Shown: piece after piece, positions 4,624-37,036 of the stretch | Layout: each line of letters begins with the position of its first letter | Position numbering within the stretch: position 1 is the first letter of the stretch | Translations under genes and position numbers: made by a program | Assembly (NCBI GenBank): GCA_019307135.1 | Contig: JAFDKF010000018.1 | Location: 11,321-75,320 of the forward strand | Length of the DNA: 64,000 nt | Origin: Deltaproteobacteria bacterium | Lineage (GTDB): Bacteria; Desulfobacterota; Desulfobacteria; Desulfobacterales; C00003060 | Direction: 5' to 3' | The notes under the pieces: generated by a model | The model's database searches: none | What the model saw: the letters and a program-made list of their open reading frames with translations, nothing else | Told to the model about the DNA's origin: nothing

Positions 4624-5313
4624 TTAGTGTTCCAGCTTCATGCCCCATCCTTCAAACATGAACAAAATGGCAAAGCCGTACCAGACGGTGTAAACCACGT
4701 AAAAAATCAAGGAGAAGGTGACCATGCCAATACGGTCATCGATTTTTTGAGGTTCGATCTTGTAGTAGTTATAGGACGTCTCCACGGCCTTTTTCCTGAC
4801 CGTAGTAACCATCTTGGCCTCTTTAAACTTCTTCTGCGTCTTTAAGTTCTTATCCATCGCCTTCAGTGCGTTCCACCAGTTAAAAAGGACCCGCTTTTCG
4901 TCGTAGCCGTACTTGCCGGAGACCGCTTGCCCATTGTTTCTATACATGTCCTCTGCATCGGCAAGACAGTTTTCCAGGATCTTGGCCAGGTCACCGCTAA
5001 CCTTCAACTCTGCACCTGACGTGCTTACGGAGGCACCGCCGCTCTTAAAAAGTGGAGCGGTCTGCCCGGCCTGCTTCTCGTCCGCCATTTTTAAGGTCAC
5101 ATCCACAGAGTTCCCCTTGAACTTGTCTTCGACCCCTTTCTTGACCTCTGGAATATAATAGGCCGAGTTCTTTGATATGGTGTTATACAACTCGTCTAAG
5201 TATTCCAGACCGTTTTTGCCCTTGAAAATAGGCGCGAACATGATGAACAGCACCACGGTAAACGTCACCATCATGCCAAGGCCGCCATAAAACTCTTTTT
5301 TTCCCTCAATCAT
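4624..5313 (-). CDS. Bitopic membrane protein of unknown family (third gene of the CBS/TSUP operon, copy 1)
   Basis: Track ORF of 229 aa with hydrophobic helices at the N and C termini and a ~150-aa K/E-rich soluble middle. It overlaps the upstream permease stop by ATGA. Its paralogue is 7770..8456. Confidence 0.7.
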   Translation of the reverse strand: MIEGKKEFYGGLGMMVTFTVVLFIMFAPIFKGKNGLEYLDELYNTISKNSAYYIPEVKKGVEDKFKGNSVDVTLKMADEKQAGQTAPLFKSGGASVSTSGAELKVSGDLAKILENCLADAEDMYRNNGQAVSGKYGYDEKRVLFNWWNALKAMDKNLKTQKKFKEAKMVTTVRKKAVETSYNYYKIEPQKIDDRIGMVTFSLIFYVVYTVWYGFAILFMFEGWGMKLEH

Positions 5314-6611
5314 GATTTCGCCTCCTCTCCCTTAAGGACCCTAAGATTCCTGAAGAACGTGGCAGTCACCCAAATCGCAAACCCGCCGATAATAATGAAA
5401 AAGGCATAGATTCCGATCTGCTCCAGGACGTAGCACACCGTTTTTGATATGGTAATGACCTCCATGTCCTGCAACTTGGCCGGCAGGGCAAAGAACCGGT
5501 TGACAAAACCGGCTATAATGGCCATGGCGTAAAAGCCACGGATCGTGACACCCTTCACCACCTTTGTGACCATTGCGCCGACCTGGATACCGAGCAAGGA
5601 TCCTAAGAGCATGCCCGTGGCCAGGGTGTAGAAGATAAACCCGTAGATGGCGTACTGGCCTATCGCGGCATAGCTTGCCGTGAAGATGATCTGGAAGATG
5701 TCAGTTCCCACCGTGGTCATGGAGGAAACCCCCAGGACATAGACGAATATGGGAAAGGTCACAAAACCGCCGCCAACCCCCATAATCGCAGCCAGAAACC
5801 CGACAAAGAAACCGGCGAGGACCAAAAACACCCATGAAATCCCGCGTCCACCAGGGGTAAAGTCAAAATCGAACTTGACCATCGGAGGAAGCTTCATGGA
5901 CTGAAGCTTTTTGGGCAGATTACCCATCTCAACCCCTTCTTCTTTTCCACCATGGCCACCTGCTTCTGGTTCTGCTGCTGCTCCTGCCGCCTTCCTAGCC
6001 CTGAGAAAGTCGGTCCCCGCGTAGATTCCCAAAAACCCCAACATGATCGAGTAGACAACCGTAATAAATGCATCACTCATCACAGGATTGATCTCATAGA
6101 TCAAGCGATTAATGTACCCGCCCACTGTCGCTCCTGTGATGGAGCCGATCAAGAAGGTCACGGCCAGGGGCACGGACACGTTTCCTAACTTCCGGTGGAT
6201 CACGCTCCCCATGATCGCCTTGGCAAAGATGTGAAACAGGTCCGTTCCGACGACCAGGATGCCTTTGATGCCTGCGCTCATCAGGGCAGGAGTAATAACG
6301 AACCCGCCACCCGCGCCGATGCAGCCTGTGATCAGGCCCGCCATCGCACCGATAAGAATGGATATGATAAAGATACCGGTACCGTAAAACGCCGGGCTGT
6401 ACGCCTTCTTGCCGCCCAGGAATTGCGGCATGGCCCCGGCAATCTCATCAGCAAAAGCGACACCCAGGATTATAATGGGAACGATCAACAACCCGAGTGC
6501 AATCAGCCGCTTGCGGTCCCGAAGTATGGTGTTTGAGTTCTCGATTTCCCATTTGGCAAAGGATCTTGCCCCCATCATCATAAATTCGCCCCACTGTTTA
6601 AAAAAACTCAT
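5310..6611 (-). CDS. Double-length TSUP (TauE/SafE, DUF81) family anion permease, copy 1
   Basis: Two TSUP-like halves carry GxGGG motifs (GCIGAGGGFVITPALM, IMGVGGGFVTFPIF). I place the start at ATG 6611 (MSFFKQWGEF) because it aligns with the paralogue start MNFFRQWYEF. The track ORF extends to 6671 through a TTG. Confidence 0.8.
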   Translation of the reverse strand: MSFFKQWGEFMMMGARSFAKWEIENSNTILRDRKRLIALGLLIVPIIILGVAFADEIAGAMPQFLGGKKAYSPAFYGTGIFIISILIGAMAGLITGCIGAGGGFVITPALMSAGIKGILVVGTDLFHIFAKAIMGSVIHRKLGNVSVPLAVTFLIGSITGATVGGYINRLIYEINPVMSDAFITVVYSIMLGFLGIYAGTDFLRARKAAGAAAEPEAGGHGGKEEGVEMGNLPKKLQSMKLPPMVKFDFDFTPGGRGISWVFLVLAGFFVGFLAAIMGVGGGFVTFPIFVYVLGVSSMTTVGTDIFQIIFTASYAAIGQYAIYGFIFYTLATGMLLGSLLGIQVGAMVTKVVKGVTIRGFYAMAIIAGFVNRFFALPAKLQDMEVITISKTVCYVLEQIGIYAFFIIIGGFAIWVTATFFRNLRVLKGEEAKS

Positions 6612-6726
6612 GGCAAATCTCTCCTTTTCTGTATAGTTTTTGTGTATAGACCCAGTATCGTGTAGCAGCAACCTCTACCCCCCCCCCGTTACATCTGTTC
6701 ACACCCCCTTTCCATGCTTCGCAATT

Positions 6727-6800
6727 AGTCGAGTGGTCGAGTGGGAAAATGGTCAAGTGGTTGACGACTCGACTACTCAACGACTCGACTACTCAACCAA
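6727..6800. repeat. Hairpin repeat, family I (CGAGTGGTCGAGTGG / CGACTCGACTACTCAAC arms), between the CBS and permease genes
   Basis: The inverted arms were read directly. The same element lies at the equivalent place in the second operon copy (9861..9935), and a related copy is at 42363..42443. Confidence 0.6.
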
Positions 6801-6817
6801 CTAGGGCGCAGCCCCTT

Positions 6818-7087
6818 CTACTCCACTATGATCCTCCGACGCTGCATAACAACGCCTCGCCTCCCTTTTGAGTTCAGATTCCCTTCCAATCCGACTTGCT
6901 TCAGGGCATCCTCAAGCGTGATCATGCCCAAAACCTCCTTTCCCCGGGTTACGGCAACCCGCTTCAGGTCATTCTTGAGCATGACCTCGAGGGCCTCCAT
7001 GATCCTGTCTTCAGGACCAACAGAGGGTTTCAGCCCAACCTCTTCCTGGATCGGTATGATGATCGCTTTAACAGAAAGCCTTTTCAT
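6818..7087 (-). CDS. Single-CBS-domain protein (first gene of the CBS/TSUP operon, copy 1)
   Basis: The protein MKRLSVKAIIIPI...VLGMITLEDALKQ fits one CBS motif. I place the start at ATG 7087. The track ORF extension to 7186 is a translation of the sigma-54 promoter (see the rejected items). Confidence 0.75.
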   Translation of the reverse strand: MKRLSVKAIIIPIQEEVGLKPSVGPEDRIMEALEVMLKNDLKRVAVTRGKEVLGMITLEDALKQVGLEGNLNSKGRRGVVMQRRRIIVE

Positions 7088-7114: not shown

Positions 7115-7129
7115 GCAATGGGTATGCCA
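7115..7129 (-). promoter_or_regulatory. Sigma-54 (-24/-12) promoter P1
   Basis: The minus strand reads cTTGGCATacccaTTGCTc, with GG and GC separated by exactly 10 nt. It lies ~28 nt upstream of ATG 7087. Confidence 0.8.
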
Positions 7130-7252
7130 AGACACATGATGACGGGGAATTGGACCAACTAGAAGGAAATAAAGAGGATTATTCAAAAGTGGATGGGCCT
7201 TTGGCTGTGGCCCAGGATAGATGTCTGTCAGGATTTTTTACAGATTGTAAAA
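7130..7252 (-). promoter_or_regulatory. Upstream activating region shared with the locus at 21947..22070
   Basis: This region is colinear with 21947..22070 on the opposite strand. Conserved blocks include the 15-bp palindrome TTTACAatcTGTAAA (~115 bp upstream of -24), CTGACAGACATCT, TGGGCCAC and CTTTTGAATAAT. Confidence 0.6.
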
Positions 7253-13272: not shown

Positions 13273-13297
13273 ACGGCTCTACCCTGCTTCGCCCATA

Positions 13298-13438
13298 AGA
13301 GATCAGAAGTCAGAAGTCAGAGGTCAGAGGTCAGAGGTCAGAGATCAAAAGCCAGAAGCCAGACCTCCGACCTCTGATCTCTGATCTCTATTTTTTCAAC
13401 TGACCTCTATTCTTTTAACTGAACCCGTGAACGGTTAC
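13298..13438. mobile_element. Family A element, copy A2 (core and right arm only)
   Basis: It contains cagaagt/cagaggt heptad runs, ccagacctccgacctctgatctctg, and the terminus ctgaacccgtgaacggttac. It lies 26 nt upstream of the kinase start at 13272. Confidence 0.7.
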
Positions 13439-13591: not shown

Positions 13592-15082
13592 TTGAGAATG
13601 TCGAACCGAATTAGTCTACGCGCCCGTCTGTTCTTGATCCTGGCCGCCCTGGTTGTCATCACGTCGGCTGGCGGGTCCGTCATGATGTGGCACACCTATC
13701 AGACAGACTCCCTTTTGAAGGGGATCATCGATAAGGACCTGGCTGCACTTCAGGCTGCCGAATGCTTGGAGAACGCTCTGGTGAACCAGAAGGGGTTTGT
13801 CTCCTATTACTTTCTCGACGGCAACCCGGACTGGCTCAAGAAATTGGGAGAGTACCGTGGGGCATTCAAGGAACGGCTCAGCGAGGTCAGGAAACTTGCT
13901 CGCACGCCGACTGACAGCGAAACCATAGATCAAATCGCGTCCGGCTATGCTGAGTACATAAGAGACAAAGATGAAGTGATCGCTTTGTACAAGGCTGGAG
14001 AGCGGGAATCCGGTGCCAGGCTCCATTGGAAGGTGCGCAGTCACTTTTTCAAAATCCTCGACCTGTGTGAGGAGTACAAGAATGTTTATAATAGAAGGAT
14101 TGACCTCGCCCGGACCAAGAGCGACACCCGGGCCAGGCAGCTCAGGCTCATTGCGGGCACAACCATATGGACGGCTATTCTTCTCGGCGTGCTATTGGCC
14201 TTTGTTCTGATGAGGCAAATCCTGAATCCGCTTCGCAGGCTGGCGTTGGACGGAGATGAAGCCGGAAGTACGGTCGCATCCGGGGATGAAGTCAAGGCCG
14301 TAAGCCGCCGTGTTCACAGCCTGATGGAAGACATGGGCCAAACCAGAATCCAGCTAGAACGAAGCCAGGAGCATCTGTTGCAGTCTGAGAAGCTGGCCCT
14401 TGTGGGTAGGCTGGCGGCAGGGATGGCTCACAGCATAAGGAATCCTTTGACATCCGTGAAGATGCGACTCTTTTCTATGGGACGAACGATGGAGCTGTCT
14501 GAAACCCAGAAAGACGACTTCGATGTGATTTCGGAAGAGATCCGCCATATTGATAACATCGTTCAGAATTTCCTCGAGTTTTCCCGGCCGCCCAAGCTAA
14601 AGATGCAGAAAGTGAGTCCTTCAGATGTGGTGGACATGGCACTCCAGCTTCTCCGGCACCGCCTCGAATCGTACGGTGCTGACGTCAAGCTTGAACGTCA
14701 ACGCCGGCTTCCCGAGATCGCGGCAGATCCGGAGCAGTTGAAAGAAGTCCTGGTCAACCTGCTGGTTAACGCGTGCGAAGCCATGGGAGGAGGTGGCCGG
14801 ATTGTAATATCCGAACAAGAGGGCATTATCGAACCACTGGGCAACGTAGTGGTCATCCAGGTGAAAGACAACGGCCCGGGGGTCCCTGAAACTATCCAGG
14901 ACACGTTGTTTGAGCCATTTTTTAGCACCAAAGAGGAAGGCACGGGGCTCGGCCTGAGCATCGCCGCACGAATCGTCGAAGACCACGGCGGCTGGCTGAA
15001 TCTCAGATCTCATAGAGGCAAGGGAGCAACCTTCACCATTACCCTTCCATGCAAGGAGGAACAGAGTTGGGTGAGATCCTGA
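13592..15082 (+). CDS. Sensor histidine kinase with a periplasmic helical sensor domain
   Basis: Track ORF of 496 aa. Two TM segments flank a ~170-aa extracytoplasmic region. Motifs are HSIRNPLTSV, LLVNACEAM, DNGPGV and GTGLGLS. Confidence 0.85.
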   Translation: MRMSNRISLRARLFLILAALVVITSAGGSVMMWHTYQTDSLLKGIIDKDLAALQAAECLENALVNQKGFVSYYFLDGNPDWLKKLGEYRGAFKERLSEVRKLARTPTDSETIDQIASGYAEYIRDKDEVIALYKAGERESGARLHWKVRSHFFKILDLCEEYKNVYNRRIDLARTKSDTRARQLRLIAGTTIWTAILLGVLLAFVLMRQILNPLRRLALDGDEAGSTVASGDEVKAVSRRVHSLMEDMGQTRIQLERSQEHLLQSEKLALVGRLAAGMAHSIRNPLTSVKMRLFSMGRTMELSETQKDDFDVISEEIRHIDNIVQNFLEFSRPPKLKMQKVSPSDVVDMALQLLRHRLESYGADVKLERQRRLPEIAADPEQLKEVLVNLLVNACEAMGGGGRIVISEQEGIIEPLGNVVVIQVKDNGPGVPETIQDTLFEPFFSTKEEGTGLGLSIAARIVEDHGGWLNLRSHRGKGATFTITLPCKEEQSWVRS

Positions 15083-16500
15083 TCGTTGATGACGATGCCC
15101 AGTTGCGGCAAAGCTTCGACAAACTCTTGACCGAAGAAGGCCACACCATACGCACCGCACCTAAAGGCGAGACGGCCATTGCTATGATTCGTGAGTGCGC
15201 GCCCGACATGGTCGTCATGGATGTGCGTTTGCCCGGAATGAGTGGACTTGAGACCTTTCGGGAAATACGCGAAATAGAGCCCAGGCTTCCCGTGATAGTG
15301 ATGACGGCCTTCGGCACTACTGAGACTGCCATCGAGGCTACCAAGTTAGGTGCCTTCGAGTATGTGCTCAAGCCGTTCGACATCCCAGACATCCTGGCCT
15401 TGATTGACCAGGCCCTCGAAGCGGGTCGATTCATGCGCGCAAGGGTGGAGATAGACGCAGTCCCGGAAGCGGGCTCTACCGAAGCAATTATTGGTCGAAG
15501 TAAGGCCATGCAGGAAGTCTACAAGGCCATTGGCCGGGTAGCTCCTACTGACGCTACAGTACTTATCCGTGGCGAGTCTGGCACCGGCAAGGAGCTGGTG
15601 GCTCGTGCAATATATCAGCACAGTCTCCGGCCAGACCAACCTTTTCTTGTGATCAACTGCGTGGCCATTCCCGAGACCCTGCTGGAAAGTGAGCTGTTCG
15701 GATATGAAAAAGGGGCCTTCACCGGTGCGGTGAGCCGCCGTGTGGGAAAGATCCAGCAAGCCCACAACGGAACGGTGTTCCTTGATGAAATCGGCGACAT
15801 GCCTTCCAGTATCCAGGCCAAGATCCTGCGCCTGCTCCAGGAAAAGAGTATAGAACGCCTCGGCGGCCGCGAGCCCATCCCGGTGGACGTAAGAATGATT
15901 GCGGCAACCAACCGGGACCTGGAAGCGGCCTTAACTGAGGGCCGGTTCCGAGAGGATCTCTATTATCGCCTCAAGGTGGTCACCCTCCGGCTTCCTCCGC
16001 TGCGCGATCGATTCGACGATATCCCTCTTCTTGCCGATTACTTCCTTGCCCGCTTCTCAAAAGAGATGAGCGCTGACAATCCGGGAATAACTAAGAAGGC
16101 CACGACCTTTCTTAGAGGTCATCATTGGCCGGGTAATGTCCGCGAATTGTCCAATACAATCCAAAAGGCATTGATTTTCAACCGAGGCGGCCCCATCAGT
16201 CTGGAGGATATGGCCCAGGCCATGGGCCGCGAGCGTGTCTCAGCGGGGGCAGAGAGCAACGCGAATGAGGCGATCCGTCAATGGGTTCGCGAAACACTCA
16301 CCTCCGGCACTGCAAAGGATACGTTTAACTCCCTGATGGATCACTTTGCCGCAGTGCTAATCAGTGAAGCCCTGGAACTCACTTCCGGCAACCGCACCCG
16401 TGCGGCCGAACTATTAGGAGTTTCCAGGCCCACCCTCCTGTCCAAAATCGAAAAATATCGCCTTAGGATAGAAACTTCGGTTAAAGGAGACTCGCCTTGA
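15067..16500 (+). CDS. Sigma-54-dependent response regulator (NtrC family)
   Basis: Motifs are REC (ILIVDDD), GESGTGKE, GYEKGAFTGA and a C-terminal HTH. I prefer the TTG start at 15067, 7 nt after aggagg. The track start at 15049 lies inside the kinase gene. Confidence 0.9.
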   Translation: MGEILIVDDDAQLRQSFDKLLTEEGHTIRTAPKGETAIAMIRECAPDMVVMDVRLPGMSGLETFREIREIEPRLPVIVMTAFGTTETAIEATKLGAFEYVLKPFDIPDILALIDQALEAGRFMRARVEIDAVPEAGSTEAIIGRSKAMQEVYKAIGRVAPTDATVLIRGESGTGKELVARAIYQHSLRPDQPFLVINCVAIPETLLESELFGYEKGAFTGAVSRRVGKIQQAHNGTVFLDEIGDMPSSIQAKILRLLQEKSIERLGGREPIPVDVRMIAATNRDLEAALTEGRFREDLYYRLKVVTLRLPPLRDRFDDIPLLADYFLARFSKEMSADNPGITKKATTFLRGHHWPGNVRELSNTIQKALIFNRGGPISLEDMAQAMGRERVSAGAESNANEAIRQWVRETLTSGTAKDTFNSLMDHFAAVLISEALELTSGNRTRAAELLGVSRPTLLSKIEKYRLRIETSVKGDSP

Positions 16501-18479: not shown

Positions 18480-19327
18480 TCAACACCTGCGCTCTCATCC
18501 TCGCCGGCCTTGTCGCCGCCCCCTTAGCCGGGGGTCTTGTAAACGGCCTGGACAGGATTCTCACCGCCCGCTTTCAGGCGCGCGTGGGCCCGCCCGTTGT
18601 GCAACCGTTTTATGATGTGGTCAAGCTCCTGGGCAAGGAAAAGACGGTCGTCAACGTCTGGCAGGCGTTTTGCGCATACTGCTATCTGGCGGCAACCGCC
18701 ATCTCGGTGGTTCTTTTTTTCCTGCAATCCGACCTCTTACTCATCTTATTCATTCAGGCCGTAGGCGCGGTCTTCTTGGTCATCGGAGCACTTTCTTCGA
18801 CCTCGCCTTACAGCCAGGTCGGTGCCCAACGCGAGCTTTTACAGATTCTCTCTTACGAGCCGTTGCTTGTCCTCGTCACCGTAGGCATCTATCTTGAGAC
18901 AGGCAGTTTCAAGATCGGACAGGTCTACGCCTGGGATGAGCCGCTTCTTCTGAAGCTCCCGTTTCTGTTCGTGGTTCTCGGTTACGCCCTCACCATCAAG
19001 CTTCGAAAATCGCCTTTTGATTTGTCCACCTCGCATCACGGCCACCAGGAGCTCGTCAAAGGGTTGCTCACTGACTACTCCGGGCCTTTCCTGGCTCTCA
19101 CCGAGATTGGCCACTGGTTTGAGGTCGTGCTGATCCTTGGCCTTTGCTCCCTGTTTTGGGCCACGAGCTGGATAGGCATGATCATAATTGTAGCGACAAC
19201 GTATTTTCTGGAAATCGTGATCGATAACGTTTCGGCCCGCATGAACTGGCGATGGATGCTCGGTTACGTATGGGCCATGGGACTGACCCTGTCCGTGGTG
19301 AATCTTGTCTGGTTGTACGTACGGTAA
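18476..19327 (+). CDS. echB: Ech hydrogenase membrane subunit B (NuoH/HycD-like)
   Basis: Track ORF of 283 aa, polytopic, with a 4-nt overlap with echA. Confidence 0.8.
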   Translation: MINTCALILAGLVAAPLAGGLVNGLDRILTARFQARVGPPVVQPFYDVVKLLGKEKTVVNVWQAFCAYCYLAATAISVVLFFLQSDLLLILFIQAVGAVFLVIGALSSTSPYSQVGAQRELLQILSYEPLLVLVTVGIYLETGSFKIGQVYAWDEPLLLKLPFLFVVLGYALTIKLRKSPFDLSTSHHGHQELVKGLLTDYSGPFLALTEIGHWFEVVLILGLCSLFWATSWIGMIIIVATTYFLEIVIDNVSARMNWRWMLGYVWAMGLTLSVVNLVWLYVR

Positions 19328-19332
19328 AGGGT

Positions 19333-19405
19333 ATCCGTTCACGGTTTCTTTTAACCCTGAACCCTGAACCCTGAACCTCTGAACCGTGAACCCATGAACG
19401 GTTAC
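19333..19405. mobile_element. Short family A element, copy A3, inside the ech operon
   Basis: The sequence tccgttcacgg...ccctgaaccctgaaccctgaacctctgaaccgtgaacccatgaacggttac fills almost the whole echB-echC spacer and ends 5 nt before the echC ATG. Confidence 0.7.
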
Positions 19406-19410
19406 TCGAC

Positions 19411-19842
19411 ATGTTCAAAAGAATGATAACAGAGTCTCGGATCAAGTCGCCGTGGCTGCTGCACTACGATTGCGGCAGTTGCAACGGCTGCGACATCGAG
19501 GTCTTGGCCTGCCTGACGCCGGTCTATGACATTGAGCGGTTCGGCATCGTCAATGTGGGCAACCCCATGCACGCCGATATCCTGCTCGTTACCGGCACGG
19601 TCAATCATAGGAACAAAAAGGTGCTGGTCAATCTGTACGATCAGATGCCGCACCCCAAGGTGGTCGTGGCCATCGGCTCCTGCGGCCTGTCGGGTGGTAT
19701 TTTTCGGGAGGCATACAATGTGGTTGGCGGCGTGGACAAGGTCATTCCGGTGGACGTTTACGTCCCCGGCTGCCCGGCAAAGCCCGAGGCCATCATCGAT
19801 GGTGTGGTCATAGGTTTGCAAAAATTCCATGAAAAGATGTGA
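19411..19842 (+). CDS. echC: Ech hydrogenase small subunit (NuoB-like, one [4Fe-4S])
   Basis: Track ORF of 143 aa with the Cys pattern CGSCNGC ... GSCGLSGG ... PGCPAKP. Confidence 0.85.
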   Translation: MFKRMITESRIKSPWLLHYDCGSCNGCDIEVLACLTPVYDIERFGIVNVGNPMHADILLVTGTVNHRNKKVLVNLYDQMPHPKVVVAIGSCGLSGGIFREAYNVVGGVDKVIPVDVYVPGCPAKPEAIIDGVVIGLQKFHEKM

Positions 19843-19848
19843 GGGATA

Positions 19849-20241
19849 ATGACCATGAAAGGTGAAATGATTTCCGTCAGCATTGATACTGTGGTGGGGG
19901 AGACCGCGAAAATCAAAGTCGAAGGTTACAGGTTTGTCACCATGTCTTGCGCAGAGCTGGATCAGACCATGATAGACATCCTGTACCATTTCGATAAGGA
20001 TCTCGAACTGAAACATTTGCGACTGACAGTGCTCCGGGATACCCCGGTGCCGAGCGTTTCCCCGGTTTATTTCGCCGCCTTCCTGGTCGAAAACGAGATA
20101 CAGGACCTGTTTGCCGTCCGCTTCAAAGGGCTGGCTATCGATTACGAGCGCACCCTGTACCTGGACGAGGAAGTAAAGGTCACGCCCTTTTGCAAGTACA
20201 CGGTGGAGAAAACGGGGTGGGGAGTAGGGAGTAAGCAGTAA
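19849..20241 (+). CDS. echD: Ech hydrogenase subunit D (NuoC-like)
   Basis: Track ORF of 130 aa. Its position between the small and large subunits is as in six-gene ech operons. Confidence 0.7.
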   Translation: MTMKGEMISVSIDTVVGETAKIKVEGYRFVTMSCAELDQTMIDILYHFDKDLELKHLRLTVLRDTPVPSVSPVYFAAFLVENEIQDLFAVRFKGLAIDYERTLYLDEEVKVTPFCKYTVEKTGWGVGSKQ

Positions 20242-20267
20242 GCAGTAGGGAGCGAGGAGAACCTGCT

Positions 20268-21341
20268 ATGCCCCAGATAATACCGTTCGGACCACAACAC
20301 CCGGTGTTGCCCGAACCGATTCATTTGAAACTGAGCGTGGTGGACGGGATCATCACGGAGGCTGTTCCAGCCTTCGGGTTTGTCCACAGGGGGCTTGAGA
20401 AACTCGCAGACATCCGGGATTTCCACCAGATGATCCAGGTGGTGGAGCGAGTTTGCGGCATCTGCTCGATGATGCACGCCATGTGCTACGCTCAGGGCAT
20501 CGAGGAGATCATGGGCGTTGAAGTGCCGCCCAGGGCAAGGTTCCTGCGCGTCATCTGGGCCGAATTGCACCGGATGCACAGCCATCTCTTGTGGCTTGGC
20601 CTGTTTGCCGACAGCTTTGGCTTTGAAAGCCTGTTCATGCAGATCTGGAGAATCCGTGAAAAAGTCCTGGACATCAACGAGGCCACCACAGGGAACAGGA
20701 TTATCGTCGCGGTCAACGTCATCGGCGGCGTCAGAACGGATTTGAACCAGGAGCAGATGCGCTGGATCCTCTCTGAGCTTGCGGAGGTAGAAAAGGAAAT
20801 CAGGCGATTGGAAACCACCTTGATGGATGACTACACCGTCAAGAAGCGGACCGTGTGTAAGGGCGTCTTAACACGTAGCCAGGCATTTGAGTTGGGTCTT
20901 GCCGGTCCGACGCTGCGGGCCAGCGATGTTGCCCAGGACATGCGCATGCTCGGGTACGCTGCCTACAACGAGCTGGACTTTGAGCCGGTGGTGGAAAAGG
21001 ACGGTGATTGCTATGCCCGTTGCAAGGTCCGCTTTCGCGAAACCCTGCAGAGTATTGACATCATCAGACAGGCCGTCTCCAAGATACCCGAGGGTGAGTT
21101 AAGCGCAAAGGTCAAGTGCAGGCCCGATGGTGAGTCCGTTTCCCGGGTGGAACAGCCCAGGGGCGAATGCTTTTATTATATCAAGGCAAACGGCAAGAAG
21201 AACCTGGACAGGCTGCGGATCAGGACACCGACGTTTGCCAACGTCCCGGCGATTCTCGCCATGCTGCCCGGCATGTGGCTGTCCGACGTGCCAGTGATCG
21301 TCCTGTCCATTGACCCGTGCATTGCCTGCACGGAAAGGTAA
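20268..21341 (+). CDS. echE: Ech hydrogenase [NiFe] large subunit (group 4, NuoD-like)
   Basis: Track ORF of 357 aa with the N-terminal Ni-binding motif RVCGICS and the C-terminal motif DPCIACTER. Confidence 0.9.
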   Translation: MPQIIPFGPQHPVLPEPIHLKLSVVDGIITEAVPAFGFVHRGLEKLADIRDFHQMIQVVERVCGICSMMHAMCYAQGIEEIMGVEVPPRARFLRVIWAELHRMHSHLLWLGLFADSFGFESLFMQIWRIREKVLDINEATTGNRIIVAVNVIGGVRTDLNQEQMRWILSELAEVEKEIRRLETTLMDDYTVKKRTVCKGVLTRSQAFELGLAGPTLRASDVAQDMRMLGYAAYNELDFEPVVEKDGDCYARCKVRFRETLQSIDIIRQAVSKIPEGELSAKVKCRPDGESVSRVEQPRGECFYYIKANGKKNLDRLRIRTPTFANVPAILAMLPGMWLSDVPVIVLSIDPCIACTER

Positions 21342-21354
21342 GGGGGTATGGACT

Positions 21355-21702
21355 GTGTTCAAAATGACCCCGAACATAATCAGAAACTTCGTCACCAAAA
21401 GGGCCACGAGGCGCTATCCCCATGAGGTAAGAGCGCCCTTTGAAGGCGCGCGGGGCGAGCTGTATAACGAAATCGAAAAATGCACGTTTTGCAGGATTTG
21501 CGCTGTCAAGTGCCCTTCACAATGCATCACGGTGGACAAAAAGACGGCCACATGGGAATGCAACCCCTTTGCCTGCGTGTATTGCGGCATATGCGTGGAT
21601 GTCTGCCGGGAAAAATGCCTGCACCAGAAATGCCAGTACCGGCCTCCGGTTTGCGAACGGGAGATTATTTTCATGAAGGGCAAGACCAAAAAAACGGGGT
21701 AG
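21355..21702 (+). CDS. echF: Ech hydrogenase 2x[4Fe-4S] ferredoxin subunit (NuoI-like)
   Basis: Cys motifs are CTFCRICAVKCP and CVYCGICVDVC. The track ORF begins at 21310, but a GTG at 21355 or ATG at 21364 after aaggggg is more likely. The stop codon lies inside the first bases of MITE A4. Confidence 0.8.
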   Translation: MFKMTPNIIRNFVTKRATRRYPHEVRAPFEGARGELYNEIEKCTFCRICAVKCPSQCITVDKKTATWECNPFACVYCGICVDVCREKCLHQKCQYRPPVCEREIIFMKGKTKKTG

Positions 21703-21932
21703 GCGTTCACAGGTTCAGAGTTCACCGTTTCAGCCGTCGTAGCCTACGGCTACTTTCAGCCGTCGTAGCTGCGCTACTATGGCGAAGTCGGCATGGCGAA
21801 GTCGGCTCAGGGTTACCTTTCCTTTGTTCGGTCAACCCTGAACCCGTGAACCCTGAACCTCTGAACCCGTGAACCCTGAACCTCTGAACCCTGAACCCTG
21901 AACCTCTGAACCGTGAACCCGTGAACGGTTAC
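21699..21932. mobile_element. Family A MITE, copy A4, with an 8-bp target duplication
   Basis: It is flanked by aaaacggg (21691..21698 and 21933..21940). The arms are gtaggcgttcacaggttcag and ctgaaccgtgaacccgtgaacggttac. The core carries the sub-repeat cagccgtcgtagc...ctatggcgaagtcggc, which is also seen in 23253..23551. Confidence 0.8.
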
Positions 21933-21946: not shown

Positions 21947-22070
21947 CTTTTACAATCTGTAAAGAATACTGACAGACATCTTTGATGGGCCACGGGCAAA
22001 GTTCCGTCCTCTTTTGAATAATATTACCTGTTTTCAACTACTTGTTCCGATTACCGGTCATCATTTGTCT
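21947..22070 (+). promoter_or_regulatory. Upstream activating region, paralogous to 7130..7252
   Basis: It has the same ordered blocks, including the palindrome TTTACAatcTGTAAA at its 5' end. Confidence 0.6.
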
Positions 22071-22085
22071 TGGCACACCCATTGC
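22071..22085 (+). promoter_or_regulatory. Sigma-54 (-24/-12) promoter P2
   Basis: cTTGGCACacccaTTGCTc matches the consensus with exact GG-N10-GC spacing, ~37 nt upstream of GTG 22122. Confidence 0.85.
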
Positions 22086-22121
22086 TCTTTCTCACTCCAA
22101 ACGACTGAGAAGGTAAATGCC

Positions 22122-22523
22122 GTGACCGAACAATTCACTATATTGATCGCAGACCGCAACCCCCACGTTCGGGAGTTTTTGCGTCGCGAGTTCATGGCAG
22201 AGGGCTACCGCGTCCGGACCGCCAAGGATGGCCGCGAGGTGGTGAGGATGACTCATGCTGATGAGCCTCCGGAGCTCCTGATCTTAGACCTGGACATGCC
22301 TTATGTGAGCGGACTGGCAATATTGGAGGAACTCCAGAACCGGAAGTCTCCTCTACCAGTAGTGGTCCACACTTTCCTTACGGAGCATGCAAAGCACCCC
22401 GCGGTCCAAAGGGCGGCAGGTTTTTGGGAGAAGCGCGGCAATAATATTGACGGCTTTAAGGCAACTGTCGCACAGGTGCTGAGAAAGTGCTATCCTCATC
22501 AGTTTGAGGCGGAGTTTCGTTAG
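22122..22523 (+). CDS. Stand-alone response-regulator receiver
   Basis: The in-frame GTG at 22122 follows gagaagg. Motifs are ILIADRN and LILDLDMPYVSG. The track ORF start at 22014 reads through the promoter. Confidence 0.75.
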   Translation: MTEQFTILIADRNPHVREFLRREFMAEGYRVRTAKDGREVVRMTHADEPPELLILDLDMPYVSGLAILEELQNRKSPLPVVVHTFLTEHAKHPAVQRAAGFWEKRGNNIDGFKATVAQVLRKCYPHQFEAEFR

Positions 22524-22728
22524 AAAACACATGTTGATTTCTCTGTGGGTAACCCCTTCCCAAAATATGAATTGTTTTTTTCTCTTGATTAGGGTAATAG
22601 ATGCACGTACAGACAATTCGGGAAGGGAGGTGGGAAAGATCAGGACTGGAGGCGGCTATGAGGAGGGGGATCATGCCCTGGCAAACCGAAACACATAAAG
22701 AACCAAACAAAAAAAGGAGGTGCAAGCG

Positions 22729-23181
22729 ATGGCGGAAATAAAGAAGATTCTTTTCCCTTGTGATTTGACAGAAAACTCGTCAAAGATTCTCCCCTATGTT
22801 TTGTCGGTTTCTGAGAAATGCAACAGCATGATTTATCTGCTTCATGTTGTACAAGACCTTCACAGGTGGGGCAAAGTGTATATTCCCCATGCTTCCATGA
22901 ATACGTTTCAAAACGAAGCCCTGGAAGGAGCTGAAAAGGCCCTGGACAGGGTTTGCGACGAACAGTTGGAAAGCTGTCCCAACTTTCAAAGAAGGATCGT
23001 TTCCGGGGACCCGGCCACGGAAATTCTGAAGACTATTGATACCGAAGATATAGACCTGGTAATCATGGGAACACACGGCCGCAAGGGATTGGAGCACACG
23101 ATCTTTGGGAGCGTGGCCGAGAATGTGGTGAAGAAATCCCCCGTTCCTGTGATGACTGTTAATCCTTATAAGGTCAAATAA
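22729..23181 (+). CDS. Universal stress protein (UspA family)
   Basis: The ATG at 22729 lies 9 nt after aggagg. The C-terminal ATP-binding motif is VMGTHGRKGLEHTIFGSVAENVV. Confidence 0.85.
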   Translation: MAEIKKILFPCDLTENSSKILPYVLSVSEKCNSMIYLLHVVQDLHRWGKVYIPHASMNTFQNEALEGAEKALDRVCDEQLESCPNFQRRIVSGDPATEILKTIDTEDIDLVIMGTHGRKGLEHTIFGSVAENVVKKSPVPVMTVNPYKVK

Positions 23182-23252
23182 CTCTTTGTCCAAATGGGCA
23201 TGATCTTGTGTAACCACTTTCAACGATTGAAATCCGAACATGTAAAAAAATG

Positions 23253-23551
23253 CCACCTGTGCGGTTAGGATGTCGGCCATTTGAGCCCTTTTGCCTGTTG
23301 AGTATGCCTCGGACATCCGCACCCGGTAGCGTGCCCCCTCCCCGCCTGCCAACGCCTGGGTCGCACCGAGGTTACAATTCAGCCGTCGTAGCTGACGCTA
23401 CTATGGCGAAGTCGGCTGCCCACACACAAGGCAACCTGCCCGCCATTGCCAGAGATGCCAGCATATAAGCTCAATGCTGTCTCAGGCGTTGGCAGGCGGG
23501 TGGCGGGCAGGTGTGGGGCACATATTGTGGTTTCAAGTAACCGCACAGGTC
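23253..23551. mobile_element. Family B MITE, copy B3
   Basis: The termini are ccacctgtgcggttag and gtaaccgcacaggtc. The flanking 9-mers are aaaaaaatg and gaaaaaatg (8 of 9 identical). Confidence 0.75.
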
Positions 23552-23581
23552 GAAAAAATGTGATACGTCAGGAGGTATACG

Positions 23582-23908
23582 ATGAAAAAGGCGAGCTGTT
23601 TCACAGTGATCTTCTTAACCGTCGTTTTGACCATCTGTCTGTTTGGTACGCAAGGCACAGCAGGTGAGAAGATCTACCAAATGAAGGGTGAAATAACGGC
23701 TATTGAGTCGGCTTACAACACGGTGGTCATCGAGGTCCCCATGGGAAAAAGGATGTTTACGGTAGCCGGGCCACTCTCGTCCGAGGCTATTTTGAAAAGG
23801 GGTGGACAGTGTGCAGGCTTGACAGATTTTGTGGTGGGTGATCAGGTCACGGTCAAATGGAGAGGTACAGATAAAGGGCACATCATTGAAATGCTCAAAG
23901 GCAATTAG
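23582..23908 (+). CDS. Small secreted protein of unknown function
   Basis: Track ORF of 108 aa with aggagg upstream and a signal-peptide-like N-terminus (MKKASCFTVIFLTVVLTICLFGTQGTAG). Confidence 0.6.
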   Translation: MKKASCFTVIFLTVVLTICLFGTQGTAGEKIYQMKGEITAIESAYNTVVIEVPMGKRMFTVAGPLSSEAILKRGGQCAGLTDFVVGDQVTVKWRGTDKGHIIEMLKGN

Positions 23909-23935
23909 ACAAAAAAGCAAAACAAGGAGGTCATC

Positions 23936-24391
23936 ATGAAAGCATTTAAGCAGATACTTTTCCCGATTGACTTTTCAGAATGTTCCGAAAAGGTTTTCCC
24001 CTTTGCGCTCGAAATGGCTCAAAAATTTGATGCAAAACTTCATATCCTATTCGTGGCAAGGGATATATCTTACCTGACAATGCTTGCCATTCCGCGCGAT
24101 CGGTTGATGAATACCTCGACCGAAATCGCCAGCGCAGGAGAAAACCAGATGAAGGCGTTTTGCGACAAACAGTTGAGCGGTTTTCCCAACCATGAGACCA
24201 AAGTGGTGATCGGGGACCCCGCAGAGGAAATTGTGAAATTTGCCGATGAACAGGGCATTGACATGATCGTCATGGGTACCCACGGCAGAAAGGGCCTGGA
24301 CCGCACTTTGATGGGCAGTGTTGCCGATCATGCAATCAAGAATGCCGCTATGCCGGTCTTGACCATCAATCCCTACAGGCTCAAAGTATAA
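23936..24391 (+). CDS. Universal stress protein (UspA family)
   Basis: Track ORF of 151 aa with aaggagg upstream and the motif VMGTHGRKGLDRTLMGSVADHAI. Confidence 0.85.
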   Translation: MKAFKQILFPIDFSECSEKVFPFALEMAQKFDAKLHILFVARDISYLTMLAIPRDRLMNTSTEIASAGENQMKAFCDKQLSGFPNHETKVVIGDPAEEIVKFADEQGIDMIVMGTHGRKGLDRTLMGSVADHAIKNAAMPVLTINPYRLKV

Positions 24392-24857: not shown

Positions 24858-24889
24858 AACCTAGTTATCAGGTGAAAGGAGTGATGACT

Positions 24890-25336
24890 ATGGCAGACAT
24901 GATTCCATGGACAACCGGAGAGTTAAGTCGGATGAGGCAAGAGATGGACAATCTCTTTGAGAGATTCTTTGAAGGTTTCCCGCGCCTTGGCTTGACCAGG
25001 AGAACGGGGCTAACACCATCGATCGATCTTTCTGAGACCAAGGACGACATTATCGTGAAGGCTGAAATCCCCGGGATAGATAGCAAGGACGTCGATATTT
25101 CCCTGTATGGCAATGTTTTGAGCATCAAGGGAGAAAAGAGGCAAGAAAAAGTAGACGAAGATGAGGACTTTCACCGCATTGAACGGTCCTATGGAGCCTT
25201 TTCCCGTAGCGTGAGTCTCCCGTGTGAGGTAGAAGAAACAAAGATAACCGCAACGTATGAAAAGGGCGTGCTGAAGATCAGGCTTCCAAAATGCGAGCCG
25301 ACCAAACCAAGACGGATCAAGATTGATGTCAAGTAG
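24890..25336 (+). CDS. Small heat-shock protein (Hsp20/alpha-crystallin), copy 1
   Basis: The alpha-crystallin core is PSIDLSETKDDIIVKAEIPGI...GVLKIRLPK. I prefer ATG 24890, 8 nt after aaggag; ATG 24884 is also possible. Confidence 0.9.
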   Translation: MADMIPWTTGELSRMRQEMDNLFERFFEGFPRLGLTRRTGLTPSIDLSETKDDIIVKAEIPGIDSKDVDISLYGNVLSIKGEKRQEKVDEDEDFHRIERSYGAFSRSVSLPCEVEETKITATYEKGVLKIRLPKCEPTKPRRIKIDVK

Positions 25337-25860: not shown

Positions 25861-26031
25861 GGTAGCCGTTCACGGGTTCAGGGTTCAGAGGTTCAGGGTT
25901 CAGTTAAAAGAATAGAGGTCAGAGATCAAAGGTCGGAGGTCTGGCTTCTGATTTCTGACTTCTGATCTCTGACTTCTGATCTCTGACTTCTGAACGGTGA
26001 ACTCTGAACCTGTGAACGCTTACGCTAAAGG
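25861..26031. mobile_element. Family A MITE, copy A6, with a 10-bp target duplication
   Basis: It is flanked by gtagaaaaat (25851..25860 and 26032..26041). The arms are ggtagccgttcacgggttcagggttcag and ctgaacctgtgaacgcttac. Confidence 0.75.
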
Positions 26032-26593: not shown

Positions 26594-26780
26594 CCACCTG
26601 TGCGGTTAGCATTCACCGTGTTTTGTCAATGAGTTGATGGTTATGAGGGAGACGTCGTAGGGGCGGCTTTACGCCGCCCGCCAAATCAATTCGGGCGAGG
26701 TAAACTCGCCCCTACGGGAAGCCGCCGATCAGAATTAGATCATTCGGAAGGGCTCAAGAATCACCCTAACCGCACAGGTC
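26594..26780. mobile_element. Family B MITE, copy B2, with a perfect 9-bp target duplication
   Basis: The termini are ccacctgtgcggttag and ctaaccgcacaggtc, flanked by gaacttttt on both sides (26585..26593 and 26781..26789). Confidence 0.85.
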
Positions 26781-28460: not shown

Positions 28461-28546
28461 CGTCAAGGCCCTTTCCGGCAAAGGGTGACGCGGGAGTTGA
28501 CAAAAAGGAATCCTAAAGATATAAGTCCAATTTTCAAAGAGTTATA

Positions 28547-28917
28547 CCTAAAGTGATCGGTTCAAGGTTCAGGGTTCAAGGTTCAAAGGTTATAGTCTAC
28601 TGATATCCTTAACTTTATAACAGAATGCTCAGATTAGCCTCTTTCACCCATCAGGTGTCAGGTGTCAGGTGTCAAAACCCTGAACACTGAAACCTGAACA
28701 CTGAAACCTGAACACTGAAACCTGAACTTTGCTAACAGCCAGTTAGGCCTGCCCTGCCCGCCCTGGCGCGACAGCCTTGGACAGATGTGTCATCCCTCTC
28801 ATCCCGGTCTGGGCCAGGGGCGCGACATCCCAAGATGATTTTGGTGCCCATGTAGTCCCGGTCTGGGCCAGGGGCTCTTCAACCGGGAACCGTGAACGTT
28901 GAACCGCTCAACCCAGG
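28547..28917. mobile_element. Composite MITE, family C (termini CCTAAAGTGATCGGTTC... / ...GAACCGCTCAACCCAGG), copy C1, with nested heptad and hairpin inserts
   Basis: The flanking 5-mers are ttata and tttta. The interior has caggtgt x3, gaacactgaaacct repeats and two gcccgccctggcgcgac/cccggtctgggccagggg units. Confidence 0.7.
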
Positions 28918-36792: not shown

Positions 36793-37011
36793 CTATTTCA
36801 TGAATTCTTATGTGAATTTATTGCATTTTCGTGTGGCGGGCGGTTCGCTTTGACAGCTTGCCGTCTTTATGATATATGGGCTTAACCTTTACGTATTGTA
36901 AAAAAAAATGACACAGATAGGCGCTCTATCCTTTTCAAAGCCTACCCTTCTATTCACTTAATATCAATTATATGAATAACCTGCTGCAATTTTATCGACA
37001 GCATCGTATCT

Positions 37012-37026
37012 TGGTACACCCTTTGC
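37012..37026 (+). promoter_or_regulatory. Sigma-54 (-24/-12) promoter P4
   Basis: cTTGGTACaccctTTGCCa has GG-N10-GC spacing. MITE C3 begins 10 nt downstream. Confidence 0.65.
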
Positions 37027-37036
37027 CACTTAATTA

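Follow-up and report, generated by a model that had tools for sequence, protein, structure and literature searches.

The same intergenic sequence stands in front of two gene clusters in the window, which is the whole 64,000-nucleotide stretch of DNA analysed here, from a genome of the sulfate-reducer type. This raises the question of what the sequence does and which regulator acts on it. The answer we favour, with a probability of about 80%, is that this 140-bp unit is a complete sigma-54 module, and that the sensor kinase HK2 and the activator EBP2, both encoded in the window, act on it at the targets called A and B and probably also at a third, C. The interpretation given in the initial annotation is supported, with the amendments described below.

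A repeated promoter cassette

Of the inverted repeats that a search of the window found, the longest has its arms at 7110-7253 (-) and 21947-22090 (+), with 144 nucleotides at 81% identity. These two copies, cassettes A and B, align without gaps across all 144 nucleotides and have in common the dyad TTTACAatcTGTAAA, a CTGACA located 3' of the dyad, and a consensus -24/-12 promoter. The two regions had been described as colinear, and every block named in that description is indeed present in both, namely TTTACAATCTGTAAA, CTGACAGACATCT, TGGGCCAC, CTTTTGAATAAT and GTCATCATnTGTCTTGGCAyACCCATTGCTCTTT. The similarity begins 2 nucleotides 5' of the dyad and ends about 8 nucleotides past the -12 element. 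The palindrome had been placed some 115 bp upstream of the -24 element; the dyad is perfect as claimed and the distance requires amendment, in that the dyad starts 122 nucleotides before the TGG and its centre lies 116 nucleotides before the GG. The elements of the two cassettes are as follows.

21949..21963, + strand: cassette B dyad TTTACAATCTGTAAA, perfect, 15 bp, upstream activating sequence (UAS) half-sites 1 and 2 (from the sequence)
21958..21974, + strand: cassette B 17-mer TGTAAAGAATACTGACA, half-sites 2 and 3, matching 14/17 positions of the published DVU0110/DVUA0057 site TGTAAAAAAAGCTGACA
22032..22044, + strand: cassette B IHF-like site TTTCAACTACTTG, 12/13 to WATCAANNNNTTR, starting 39 nucleotides upstream of the TGG
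22071..22085, + strand: cassette B sigma-54 -24/-12 promoter TGGCACACCCATTGC (pattern search)
7237..7251, - strand: cassette A dyad TTTACAATCTGTAAA, perfect and identical to the B dyad (from the sequence)
7226..7242, - strand: cassette A 17-mer TGTAAAAAATCCTGACA, matching 15/17 positions of the DVU0110/DVUA0057 site upstream of the Desulfovibrio TSUP operon
7115..7129, - strand: cassette A sigma-54 -24/-12 promoter TGGCATACCCATTGC (pattern search)

Both promoters are intergenic and face a gene start across a short leader. The TTGC of cassette B ends at 22085, which is 36 nucleotides ahead of a GTG at 22122, and that of cassette A ends at 7115, which is 27 nucleotides ahead of an ATG at 7087. 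When compared with TGGCAC-N5-TTGCW, wherein GG and GC are exactly 10 nucleotides apart, B (TGGCACACCCATTGCT) has no mismatches and A (TGGCATACCCATTGCT) has one. There are four matches to TGGYAYN5TTGC in the 64 kb, against 0.62 expected, and none of 100 shuffles gave four. These are the sole consensus sigma-54 promoters of the window, and all are intergenic and correctly oriented. Similarly, there are three perfect matches to TTTAC-N5-GTAAA-N7-GACA, against an expectation of 0.25 even when two mismatches are allowed. The gene rpoN is not among the genes of the 64-kb window, and two GAFTGA activators are encoded there.

Two further scans gave matches that we judge to be meaningless. A sigma-70 scan returned one weak match overlapping the dyad in B and none in A, and a terminator scan returned a 5-bp terminator-like hairpin within cassette B.

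The cassette had been reported at two loci. The A and B pair stands, and the window holds in addition a third, more diverged copy, cassette C, at 36888-37026 (+).

36888..36913, + strand: cassette C diverged UAS TTTACGTATTGTAAAAAAAAATGACA, whose 17-mer is 15/17 to the DVU0110/DVUA0057 site
37012..37026, + strand: cassette C sigma-54 promoter TGGTACACCCTTTGC (pattern search)

The promoter of cassette C is followed by a leader of about 290 nucleotides containing heptamer repeats, and then by a gene for a receiver-HisKA_3 kinase (37318-38586). The fourth sigma-54 promoter, at 10463-10477 (-), is associated with a different UAS.

Perhaps A and B resemble each other as copies of a dispersed repeat, or through a duplication that was recent and neutral, with no regulatory meaning in common. 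Intergenic repeats abound in the genome, and the spacers of A and B are 75% identical, which is about 4.8 SD over a background of 52.4+-4.7% and more than function alone explains in other genomes. This identity is the same as that of orthologous pairs, and therefore A and B do descend, over the full length of the cassette, from a common ancestor. However, there are only three copies in the 64 kb and all are located at promoters, which is not the distribution of a dispersed repeat or MITE. Moreover, in a metagenome scan for the lineage-specific core, each match that belonged to a cassette preceded a receiver or CBS ortholog, the others being chance occurrences that lack a cassette. In relatives, the B-type cassettes are gap-free and about 70% identical, although the receiver is only 67% identical. 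Neither an Rfam search at gathering thresholds nor a tRNA scan gave a match anywhere in the window, the repeat included. We consider a meaningless repeat to be extremely improbable.

Conservation of the module across genomes

One genome of each species was scanned with a pattern that required both the dyad and the promoter, such that only the GACA, the spacing, the IHF site, the taxonomy, the gene content and the adjacency to an activator gene are independent of the search. The architecture of the module was found at 120 or more loci, nearly all of them from Desulfobacterota, and within this phylum it precedes genes at no fewer than 115 loci. Five of the loci listed are clearly not from this phylum by name (L036, L072, L113, L114 and L116), and the GACA is absent from all five; the others mostly carry names of Desulfobacterota or delta-proteobacteria, with a few names that are uninformative or different. 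About 113 foreign loci among those listed have the dyad together with the same conserved features that the pattern did not specify.

The GACA located 7 nucleotides past the dyad is one such feature, and it carries 1.2-1.7 bits (124 sites). The length of the module is 135-138 nucleotides in 73 of 125 sites, and side peaks at 126 and at 148-150 nucleotides are about one helical turn off. An IHF consensus is present in 15 of 114 spacers, against 0.8+-1.0 expected, and 12 of these 15 are located at -38 to -40 from the TGG. The IHF-type site is near-consensus in B (12/13) and weak in A. No match to the strict E. coli IHF consensus was found around CTTTTGAATAAT in A and B, and the IHF-like element lies further downstream. 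None of the 17-mer sites in these loci lacks the TTTAC half, and the 103/103 sites with a full dyad constitute weak evidence because the loci were pre-selected for the dyad. The recurrence of this architecture with an unspecified GACA, helical phasing and an IHF-like site supports the earlier proposal of an enhancer joined to a sigma-54 promoter. In keeping with a UAS, the dyad-symmetric site falls within the range of 80-150 bp upstream of the -24 element that is expected of such sites, and it is conserved in both orthologous and paralogous promoters.

Genes located behind the cassettes

The genes immediately downstream of cassettes B and A are listed here.

22122..22523, + strand: single-domain receiver of 133 amino acids, first gene behind B (Pfam Response_reg; D11, D56 and K104 conserved)
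22720-23181, + strand: USP of the B cluster (Pfam Usp)
23582-23908, + strand: 108-amino-acid protein with a signal peptide, B cluster (translation)
23936-24391, + strand: second USP of the B cluster (Pfam Usp)
6818-7087, - strand: CBS protein of operon A (Pfam)
5310-6671, - strand: TauE/TSUP permease of operon A (Pfam)
4624-5313, - strand: 229-amino-acid membrane protein with two TM segments, operon A (translation)

In many loci the motif is followed first by an ortholog of the receiver, at 35-48% identity, and orthologs of the rest of the B cluster (22720..24391) are found in L123 and in L128/L129. Operon A (4624..7087, -) is copy 1 of a tandem duplication (duplication families D11-D16). Its TauE gene and the gene for the 229-amino-acid partner occur behind the motif in L002, L017, L022, L070, L073 and L117. 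Gene types that are divided between A and B can also share one cassette elsewhere: a USP gene and a TauE gene stand behind one and the same cassette in L007, L017, L050, L062 and L117, and a receiver and a TauE operon do so in L002. Among the loci listed, the genes behind the motif include receivers (42 sites), dCache kinases (24), TauE (18), USPs (16), DASS transporters (13) and CBS-pair proteins (10). The repeated appearance of TauE/TSUP, USP, CBS and receiver genes downstream of the motif in other genomes argues for the suggestion that one activator may govern both a transporter and a stress cluster.

A candidate activator and its kinase

There are two genes in the window that are associated with this motif.

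13592..15082, + strand: sensor kinase HK2, partner of EBP2, with a 4HB_MCP/CHASE3-type sensor, HisKA and HATPase (Pfam)
15049..16500, + strand: EBP2, an NtrC-type activator with a receiver, an AAA+ domain with GAFTGA, and HTH_8 (Pfam; the database copy starts at 15067)

Orthologs of EBP2 (58-75% identity) are present in at least 27 foreign loci among the 120 listed. In 26 of these, the ortholog is on the same strand and upstream of the motif, and in 23 it ends 15-270 bp before the dyad. By our estimate, any single-copy gene of a genome of about 6 Mb would fall within an 8-kb locus by chance at a rate of about 0.1%. An ortholog of HK2 (41-63% identity) precedes that of EBP2 in every locus where this is checkable, and the recognition helix SRPTLxSKIxKY is near-invariant among the EBP2 orthologs. 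The initial annotation had named the activator at 15067..16500 as a plausible binder, and the position of its orthologs, which directly precede the motif in 26 foreign loci, points to the same candidate. The reason offered there, that the ech operon shows no sigma-54 promoter, is not the evidence that matters.

In the relatives L128/L129, the genes are contiguous in the order HK2 (73%), EBP2 (77%), cassette, receiver (67%), USP (81%) and USP (73%), with the cassette directly after the EBP2 stop codon. In the window, the ech operon sits inserted between EBP2 and cassette B. The gene order in L128/L129 indicates that locus B is the home promoter of EBP2. The description of A and B as unlinked loci needs amending: the gene of the candidate activator lies 5.4 kb upstream of B, and in relatives B directly adjoins it. 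EBP2 does not reach the cutoff of any NCBIfam equivalog, its closest solved structures are Aquifex NtrC1/NtrC4, and the 120 matches listed from a homolog search are all close relatives with generic names.

The other GAFTGA activator, EBP1 (10665-12068), might instead bind the palindrome and drive A. Because it is directly upstream of the tandem CBS/TSUP operons, it could perhaps also drive B. EBP1 is on the same strand as cassette A and 3.4 kb upstream, an arrangement that is kept in the close relative L020, and its own likely site is built from the same words, GTAAC/GTTKAC. In addition, the targets of DVU0804 and DVU0110 overlap in Desulfovibrio (PMC3333781), and an EBP1-like gene is found behind a cassette in L075. 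However, L020 and, as a target, L075 are the only ones among the listed loci in which an EBP1 ortholog accompanies the motif, versus at least 27 for EBP2, and the HTH of EBP1 is different, with the recognition helix QRQYLHRIMKHE. The stop codon of EBP1 is followed directly by a sigma-54 promoter of its own, the one at 10463-10477, with a different, everted site (GTAACCTATTAGTTGAC), and the L020 version of this site matches 15/17 positions of the DVU0804 site published for D. alaskensis G20. Control by EBP1 is therefore quite unlikely.

Another possibility is that at least two paralogous activators share the site, namely EBP2 and a DVUA0057-like protein encoded outside the window, with the cassette integrating several signals. 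A second activator from elsewhere in the genome could act in this manner because two Desulfovibrio paralogs share a site: the DVU0132 site of D. vulgaris is attributed jointly to DVU0110 and DVUA0057 (PMC4641369). Desulfobacteria have 50-70 EBPs (PMC12316311), and the three half-sites amount to two overlapping dyads. On the other hand, only the EBP2 family is enriched beside the motif, other EBP matches in the loci being to the receiver only, and a second EBP2-like HTH was not found among the genes of the window. Shared use of the site is unlikely, albeit somewhat less so than control by EBP1.

Proposed mechanism and significance

We return to HK2 and EBP2 as the preferred regulators. The proposed mechanism is that of a conventional NtrC/IHF/sigma-54 promoter. 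The UAS of the module has three half-sites (TTTACA-N3-TGTAAA-N5-CTGACA) and is separated from the -24/-12 promoter by a spacer whose length is fixed, with a putative IHF-type bending site about 39 nucleotides upstream of the -24 element. The kinase encoded at 13592-15082 would phosphorylate EBP2, which would oligomerise on the half-sites and be brought by DNA looping to the closed complex of the sigma-54 holoenzyme, where it would open the promoter with ATP. At least three transcription units would be switched on in this way. The receiver/USP/secreted protein/USP cluster at B would be the ancestral 'home' target of EBP2; copy 1 of the CBS/TSUP/membrane-protein operon at A would be another, and the receiver-kinase cluster at 37318 (C) is probably a third. 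The gene for the single-domain receiver opens the home target, and its product could plausibly serve as a phosphate sink or provide feedback.

A more ambitious reading can be offered only tentatively. The unit might be a rigid, portable combination of UAS, IHF site and promoter belonging to a phylum-wide HK2/EBP2 regulon, which would unite TSUP and DASS candidate anion transporters, USP, CBS and PPDK_N-like nucleotide-sensing stress proteins, and second-tier two-component systems, with the receiver as built-in feedback. Perhaps the whole unit has been copied or homogenised between operons in this lineage, leaving one tandem TSUP copy under EBP2 and the other under the DVU0804-like EBP1. If true, this would illustrate cleanly how the exchange of promoter modules can lead to regulatory subfunctionalisation.

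To our knowledge, almost none of the sigma-54 activators of Desulfobacteria have an assigned motif or regulon. The analysis yields an assignment that can be tested, in which a widespread kinase/activator pair goes with a precisely defined site, a promoter of fixed geometry and a set of genes that recurs (receivers, USPs, CBS proteins, TSUP transporters and DASS transporters). Through the site match, the pair also appears to be tied to the experimentally studied DVU0110/DVUA0057 system of Desulfovibrio. The motif provides a handle for regulon prediction in uncultured sulfate reducers known only from metagenomes, and the regulon suggests conditions under which the poorly understood function of TSUP transporters could be probed.

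Comparison with known systems

Apart from unrelated papers, a literature search with the palindrome words and sigma-54 turned up only the TyrR box, TGTAAA-N6-TTTACA (PMC4894688). The hexamer words of this box are identical and TyrR is also a member of the EBP family. We reject it as the counterpart because the order and spacing are opposite (TTTACA-N3-TGTAAA), and the context here is a sigma-54 promoter and a response-regulator EBP. NmpR of Myxococcus xanthus (PMC11841059) and DVU3305 were considered because both control USP and CBS genes; they are NtrC-like and act from dyads upstream of sigma-54 promoters. Both were rejected, NmpR for its different motif (GCGCA-N5-TGCGC) and the DVU3305 general-stress regulon for its motif (TGTTGC..GCAACA), its GAFSGA and its Lon-RR partner. 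A comparative paper on sulfate transporters (PMC5840216) makes no statement on regulation.

The DVU0804 regulon (GTAAAC-N5-GTTTAC; target DVU0805-0806) employs the same pentamer words as A and B, but its half-sites have the opposite arrangement, GTAAA...TTTAC rather than TTTAC...GTAAA. There, the regulator gene is followed directly by the target promoter, which matches site D behind EBP1 (10576-10592) and not A or B.

The classical NtrC/IHF/sigma-54 promoters (glnAp2, nifH and dctA) resemble the module in having a dyad UAS about 100-140 bp upstream with a bending site between (a putative one in the module), a -24 GG/-12 GC promoter, and a phosphorylated receiver-AAA+-HTH activator, which is predicted here. 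They differ in their half-sites (TGCACC/GGTGCA, versus TTTAC/GTAAA plus GACA) and in serving nitrogen metabolism, whereas the gene content here suggests stress and transport.

The closest system is the DVU0110/DVUA0057 regulon of D. vulgaris Hildenborough (Rajeev 2011, PMC3333781; Kazakov 2015, PMC4641369), for which DAP-chip binding is reported (Rajeev 2011, PMC3333781). Its regulators are likewise NtrC-type two-component activators with GAFTGA. The published 17-bp site TGTAAAAAAAGCTGACA lies upstream of the Desulfovibrio TSUP operon DVU0132-0133 (PMC4641369 Additional file 4) and is matched at 15/17, 14/17 and 15/17 positions by cassettes A, B and C, respectively. The DVU0132 sigma-54 promoter TGGCACACCCGTTGC (PMC4641369 Additional file 6) is 14/15 to the cassette B promoter. 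DVU0132-0133 encodes a TSUP permease and a small membrane protein, as does operon A, which also includes CBS. In contrast to D. vulgaris Hildenborough, the sites here have an extra half-site before the 17-mer that creates the perfect dyad TTTACA-N3-TGTAAA, and the distance from site to promoter is about 107 nucleotides, fixed and phased, rather than about 210. The regulon also appears to be much wider, with receivers, USPs, CBS proteins, DASS transporters and dCache kinases as predicted members. Thus, given the phylum-wide conservation, the adjacency to the activator gene and the site type already published for DVU0110/DVUA0057 and DVU0132-0133, the module is a real, fairly ordinary member of a regulon.

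Anatomy of the cassettes and their surroundings

The regions 7110-7253 (cassette A, - strand) and 21947-22090 (cassette B, + strand) form the longest inverted repeat found by a repeat search of the window (144 nt, 81% identity). They align without gaps from 2 nt 5' of the dyad TTTACAATCTGTAAA to approximately 8 nt beyond the -12 element, and the alignment contains every block named in the initial annotation, which had described this two-region repeat. The sequence TGGCAC-N5-TTGCW is found at 22071-22086 (+) with no mismatches and at 7114-7129 (-) with one. There are four matches to TGGYAYN5TTGC in the 64 kb, compared with 0.62 expected, and none of 100 shuffles gave four. All four (A-D) are intergenic and directed toward genes. 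Pfam agrees with the gene calls of the initial annotation.

Promoters and genes around the cassettes
7115-7129 (-), sigma-54 promoter A, precedes CBS/TSUP operon copy 1
22071-22085 (+), sigma-54 promoter B, precedes the receiver/USP cluster
37012-37026 (+), sigma-54 promoter C, precedes a receiver-kinase gene
10463-10477 (-), sigma-54 promoter D, precedes CBS/TSUP copy 2
6818-7087 (-), CBS protein (Pfam), operon behind A
5310-6671 (-), TauE/TSUP protein (Pfam), operon behind A
Operon behind A, 229-aa protein with two TM helices, the TSUP partner
22122-22523 (+), receiver (Pfam), behind B
22720-23181 (+), USP (Pfam), B cluster
23582-23908 (+), signal-peptide protein, B cluster
23936-24391 (+), USP (Pfam), B cluster
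10665-12068 (-), EBP1, NtrC-type activator with GAFTGA
12058-13272, PAS kinase alongside EBP1
13592-15082 (+), HK2, 4HB_MCP/CHASE3-type kinase alongside EBP2
15049-16500 (+), EBP2, NtrC-type activator with GAFTGA

The upstream site TTTACGTATTGTAAAAAAAAATGACA is also found at C, and therefore C is a third, diverged cassette. There are exactly three perfect matches to TTTAC-N5-GTAAA-N7-GACA in the window (A, B and C), compared with 0.25 expected. An IHF-like sequence, TTTCAACTACTTG (12/13), is located at exactly -39 in B, and A is a poor match there. Within B (21992-22007, +), CTCTTTTGA comes after a weak terminator-like hairpin, and a different small hairpin (TGGGCC...GGCCCA) occupies the equivalent position in A; these could be chance or a structural spacer element. 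Neither EBP1 nor EBP2 meets any NCBIfam equivalog cutoff, and the nearest solved structures to these activators are Aquifex NtrC1/NtrC4.

Several other repeats are present in the window. Tandem heptamers (GTTCAGG, TCAGAGA and CCTGAAC types) occupy many intergenic regions (10256-10400, 13285-13385, 19342-19405, 21824-21932, 25881-26010, 28546-28727, 33374-33466, 37036-37212, 43206-43370, 49360-49545, 54157-54351 and 58982-59068). One array stops 15 nt 5' of cassette B, and the long leaders 3' of promoters C and D also contain them. A GC-rich, hairpin-containing repeat (60-110 nt, 93-95% identity) that resembles a REP-like element is found three times between genes (4278-4388, 26597-26705 and 59141-59200), with both strands represented. 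The EBP2-type clusters B and C each have an HSP20-type gene just 3' of them (24872-25336 and 41392-41883, respectively), and these two genes are 95% identical over 300 nt (24859-25158 versus 41406-41705). The receiver-HisKA_3 kinase and the small receiver genes of cluster C (37318-40292) have paralogous copies in the upstream block 30744-34444 (79-89% DNA identity in stretches), which lacks a cassette.

Distribution of the motif and its gene associations

There are at least 120 loci that match TTTACRNNNYGTAAA-N{95,125}-TGGYAYN5TTGC when one genome per species is scanned. Most titles among the matches listed are Desulfobacterota or delta-proteobacteria, with named carriers including Desulfobacterales, Desulfomonile, Syntrophobacterales, Desulfatiglandales, Desulfarculia, NaphS2, Desulfosarcina alkanivorans and Desulfatitalea. 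A few differ or are uninformative (bacterium, Proteobacteria, Pseudomonadota, Acidobacteriota), and five clearly lie outside the Desulfobacterota (Bacteroidales, Flavobacteriaceae, cyanobacterium, Bacillus, Vulcanimicrobiota). The sequence AAAt.ctGACA 3' of the dyad is conserved though absent from the search pattern, and its GACA carries 1.2-1.7 bits. GACA is matched at three or more of its four positions in 113/124 foreign sites among the matches listed and in none of the five outsider sites, which are therefore usable as an internal chance control.

Among the matches listed, module length peaks at 135-138 nt (73/125 sites), and the side peaks at 126 and 148-150 nt lie about one helical turn to either side. 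An exact match to the IHF consensus WATCAANNNNTTR is present in 15/114 listed spacers, compared with 0.8+-1.0 in shuffles, and 12 of these 15 begin 38-40 nt 5' of TGG. The remaining spacers share an A/T pattern around the -38 to -40 position.

ORFs located 3' of the 113 GACA-bearing foreign sites were clustered, and representatives were scanned with Pfam.

Genes behind GACA-bearing foreign sites (numbers of sites, among the matches listed)
Single-domain receivers, 42
dCache_1 kinases, 24
TauE/TSUP, 18
USP, 16, plus 3 tandem USP
DASS (Na_sulph_symp), 13
CBS-pair proteins, 10
99-aa protein family, 9
229-aa TSUP partner, 6
PPDK_N-like, 6
Cytidylate_kin2, 5
PBP_like_2, 3

In the receiver cluster, 57 of 59 scanned members are true Response_reg proteins, and the first gene behind many cassettes is 35-48% identical to 22122-22523. 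A single cassette precedes both USP and TauE in five foreign loci (L007, L017, L050, L062 and L117), and the row in L002 comprises a receiver, a receiver-like gene, TauE (67%), the partner protein (59%) and PPDK_N. Thus, the transporter/stress association is recurrent and phylum-wide, which is consistent with the proposal in the initial annotation that the transporter and the stress cluster are co-regulated. A PPDK_N/PEP-utilizer gene (38-2227, +) is convergent to TSUP operon copy 1, and genes of this type are co-operonic with TauE and the partner behind the cassette in L002, L070 and L073.

Candidate activator and home locus

Both activators were compared with the foreign loci by tblastn. Among the matches listed, 27/120 loci carry a full-length EBP2 ortholog (58-75% identity). 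For any one single-copy gene, we estimate a chance rate of ~0.1% per 8-kb locus when the genome is ~6 Mb. The ortholog is on the cassette strand in 26 loci and ends 15-270 bp 5' of the dyad in 23. Where this can be checked, an HK2 ortholog precedes it (41-63% identity, sensor domain included). The EBP2 helix-turn-helix, GNR[ST]xAAxLLGxSRPTLxSKIxKY, is nearly invariant.

The alternative that EBP1 binds the upstream site is disfavoured by these adjacency statistics, by its different helix and by its own distinct site (D). Among the foreign loci listed, only two have an EBP1 ortholog: L020, a close relative that shares the tandem arrangement, and L075, where the EBP1-type gene is downstream of the cassette.

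When metagenomes were scanned for the lineage-specific core of A and B, it was seen only upstream of receiver (B type) or CBS (A type) orthologs; other matches were due to chance and lacked the cassette. A meaningless dispersed repeat, an alternative raised by the initial annotation, is rejected on the context and conservation of the cassettes. In L128/L129, HK2 (73%), EBP2 (77%), the cassette, the receiver (67%) and two USP genes (81% and 73%) are contiguous, an order that marks locus B as the predicted home promoter of the HK2/EBP2 system. We regard the scan as decisive on this point, and adjacency, helix and gene order together favour EBP2, as initially suggested, as the candidate activator. 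An ech/Mbh-like membrane hydrogenase operon (16536-21702, +) separates EBP2 from cassette B, as in L001 and L131. L128/L129 lack this operon and have the cassette directly after EBP2, and the operon thus represents an insertion, specific to the lineage, into the regulatory locus.

Across all 8128 cassette pairs, spacer identity (GACA to -24) is 52.4+-4.7%. The A and B spacers are 75% identical, which ranks them among the six most similar pairs and is the same value as between A and its L020 ortholog, and common spacers are not seen at the paralogous sites of L041, L081 and L111. B-type cassettes of relatives are gap-free and ~70% identical even though identity of the receiver protein is just 67%, and therefore the whole unit is under constraint, at least on length. 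The likeness of A and B reflects common descent or homogenisation besides shared functional elements; its source may be an old duplication under constraint or gene conversion.

We consider it quite probable (roughly 80%) that this is a conventional NtrC/IHF/sigma-54 module recognised by HK2/EBP2 at its home target B, at TSUP copy A and probably at cluster C. The anatomy of the module, its conservation, its genomic association and its literature match are direct observations. By inference, EBP2 would bind the cassettes and activate the promoters in an ATP-dependent manner via looping, the operons behind the cassettes would be co-expressed, and the receiver might act as a feedback element.

Comparison with known systems

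In D. vulgaris, D. piger and D. magneticus, the TSUP operon DVU0132-0133 is preceded by the DVU0110/DVUA0057 site, TGTAAAAAAAGCTGACA (PMC4641369, Additional file 4; Kazakov et al. 2015), and binding was observed by DAP-chip (PMC3333781). The two 3' half-sites of the window's upstream sites match it at 15/17 (A), 14/17 (B) and 15/17 (C) positions, and promoter B matches the DVU0132-0133 sigma-54 promoter, TATGGCACACCCGTTGCTT (PMC4641369, Additional file 6), at 14/15. These matches imply that cassette A is the Desulfobacteria counterpart of the published regulatory region and that DVU0110 probably has its counterpart in EBP2. By analogy with the pairing of DVU0110 with DVUA0057, a further paralog might share control of the cassette with EBP2.

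Site D, GTAACCTATTAGTTGAC, is everted (10576-10592, -) and lies behind EBP1. It is followed by an exact IHF consensus, TATCAATATGTTA (10507-10519), and by promoter TGGTACGTATCTTGC, directly 3' of the EBP1 stop and 5' of CBS/TSUP copy 2. The L020 version, GTAACCTATTTGTTTAC, matches the DVU0804 site of D. alaskensis G20 (PMC4641369) at 15/17 positions. The tandem TSUP copies therefore seem to be wired to two different activators, an arrangement that echoes the reported overlap of DVU0804 and DVU0110 targets in D. vulgaris (PMC3333781).

The TyrR box TGTAAA-N6-TTTACA (PMC4894688) uses the same words as the window dyad but in the opposite arrangement. NmpR (GCGCA-N5-TGCGC) and DVU3305 (TGTTGC..GCAACA) control USP and CBS genes, but their motifs are unlike the window's upstream site. 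Relative to the published sites, several features appear to be new: an extra 5' half-site that gives a perfect TTTACA-N3-TGTAAA dyad, the fixed and phased spacing between site and promoter, the presence of an IHF element, the home locus and the wide predicted regulon.
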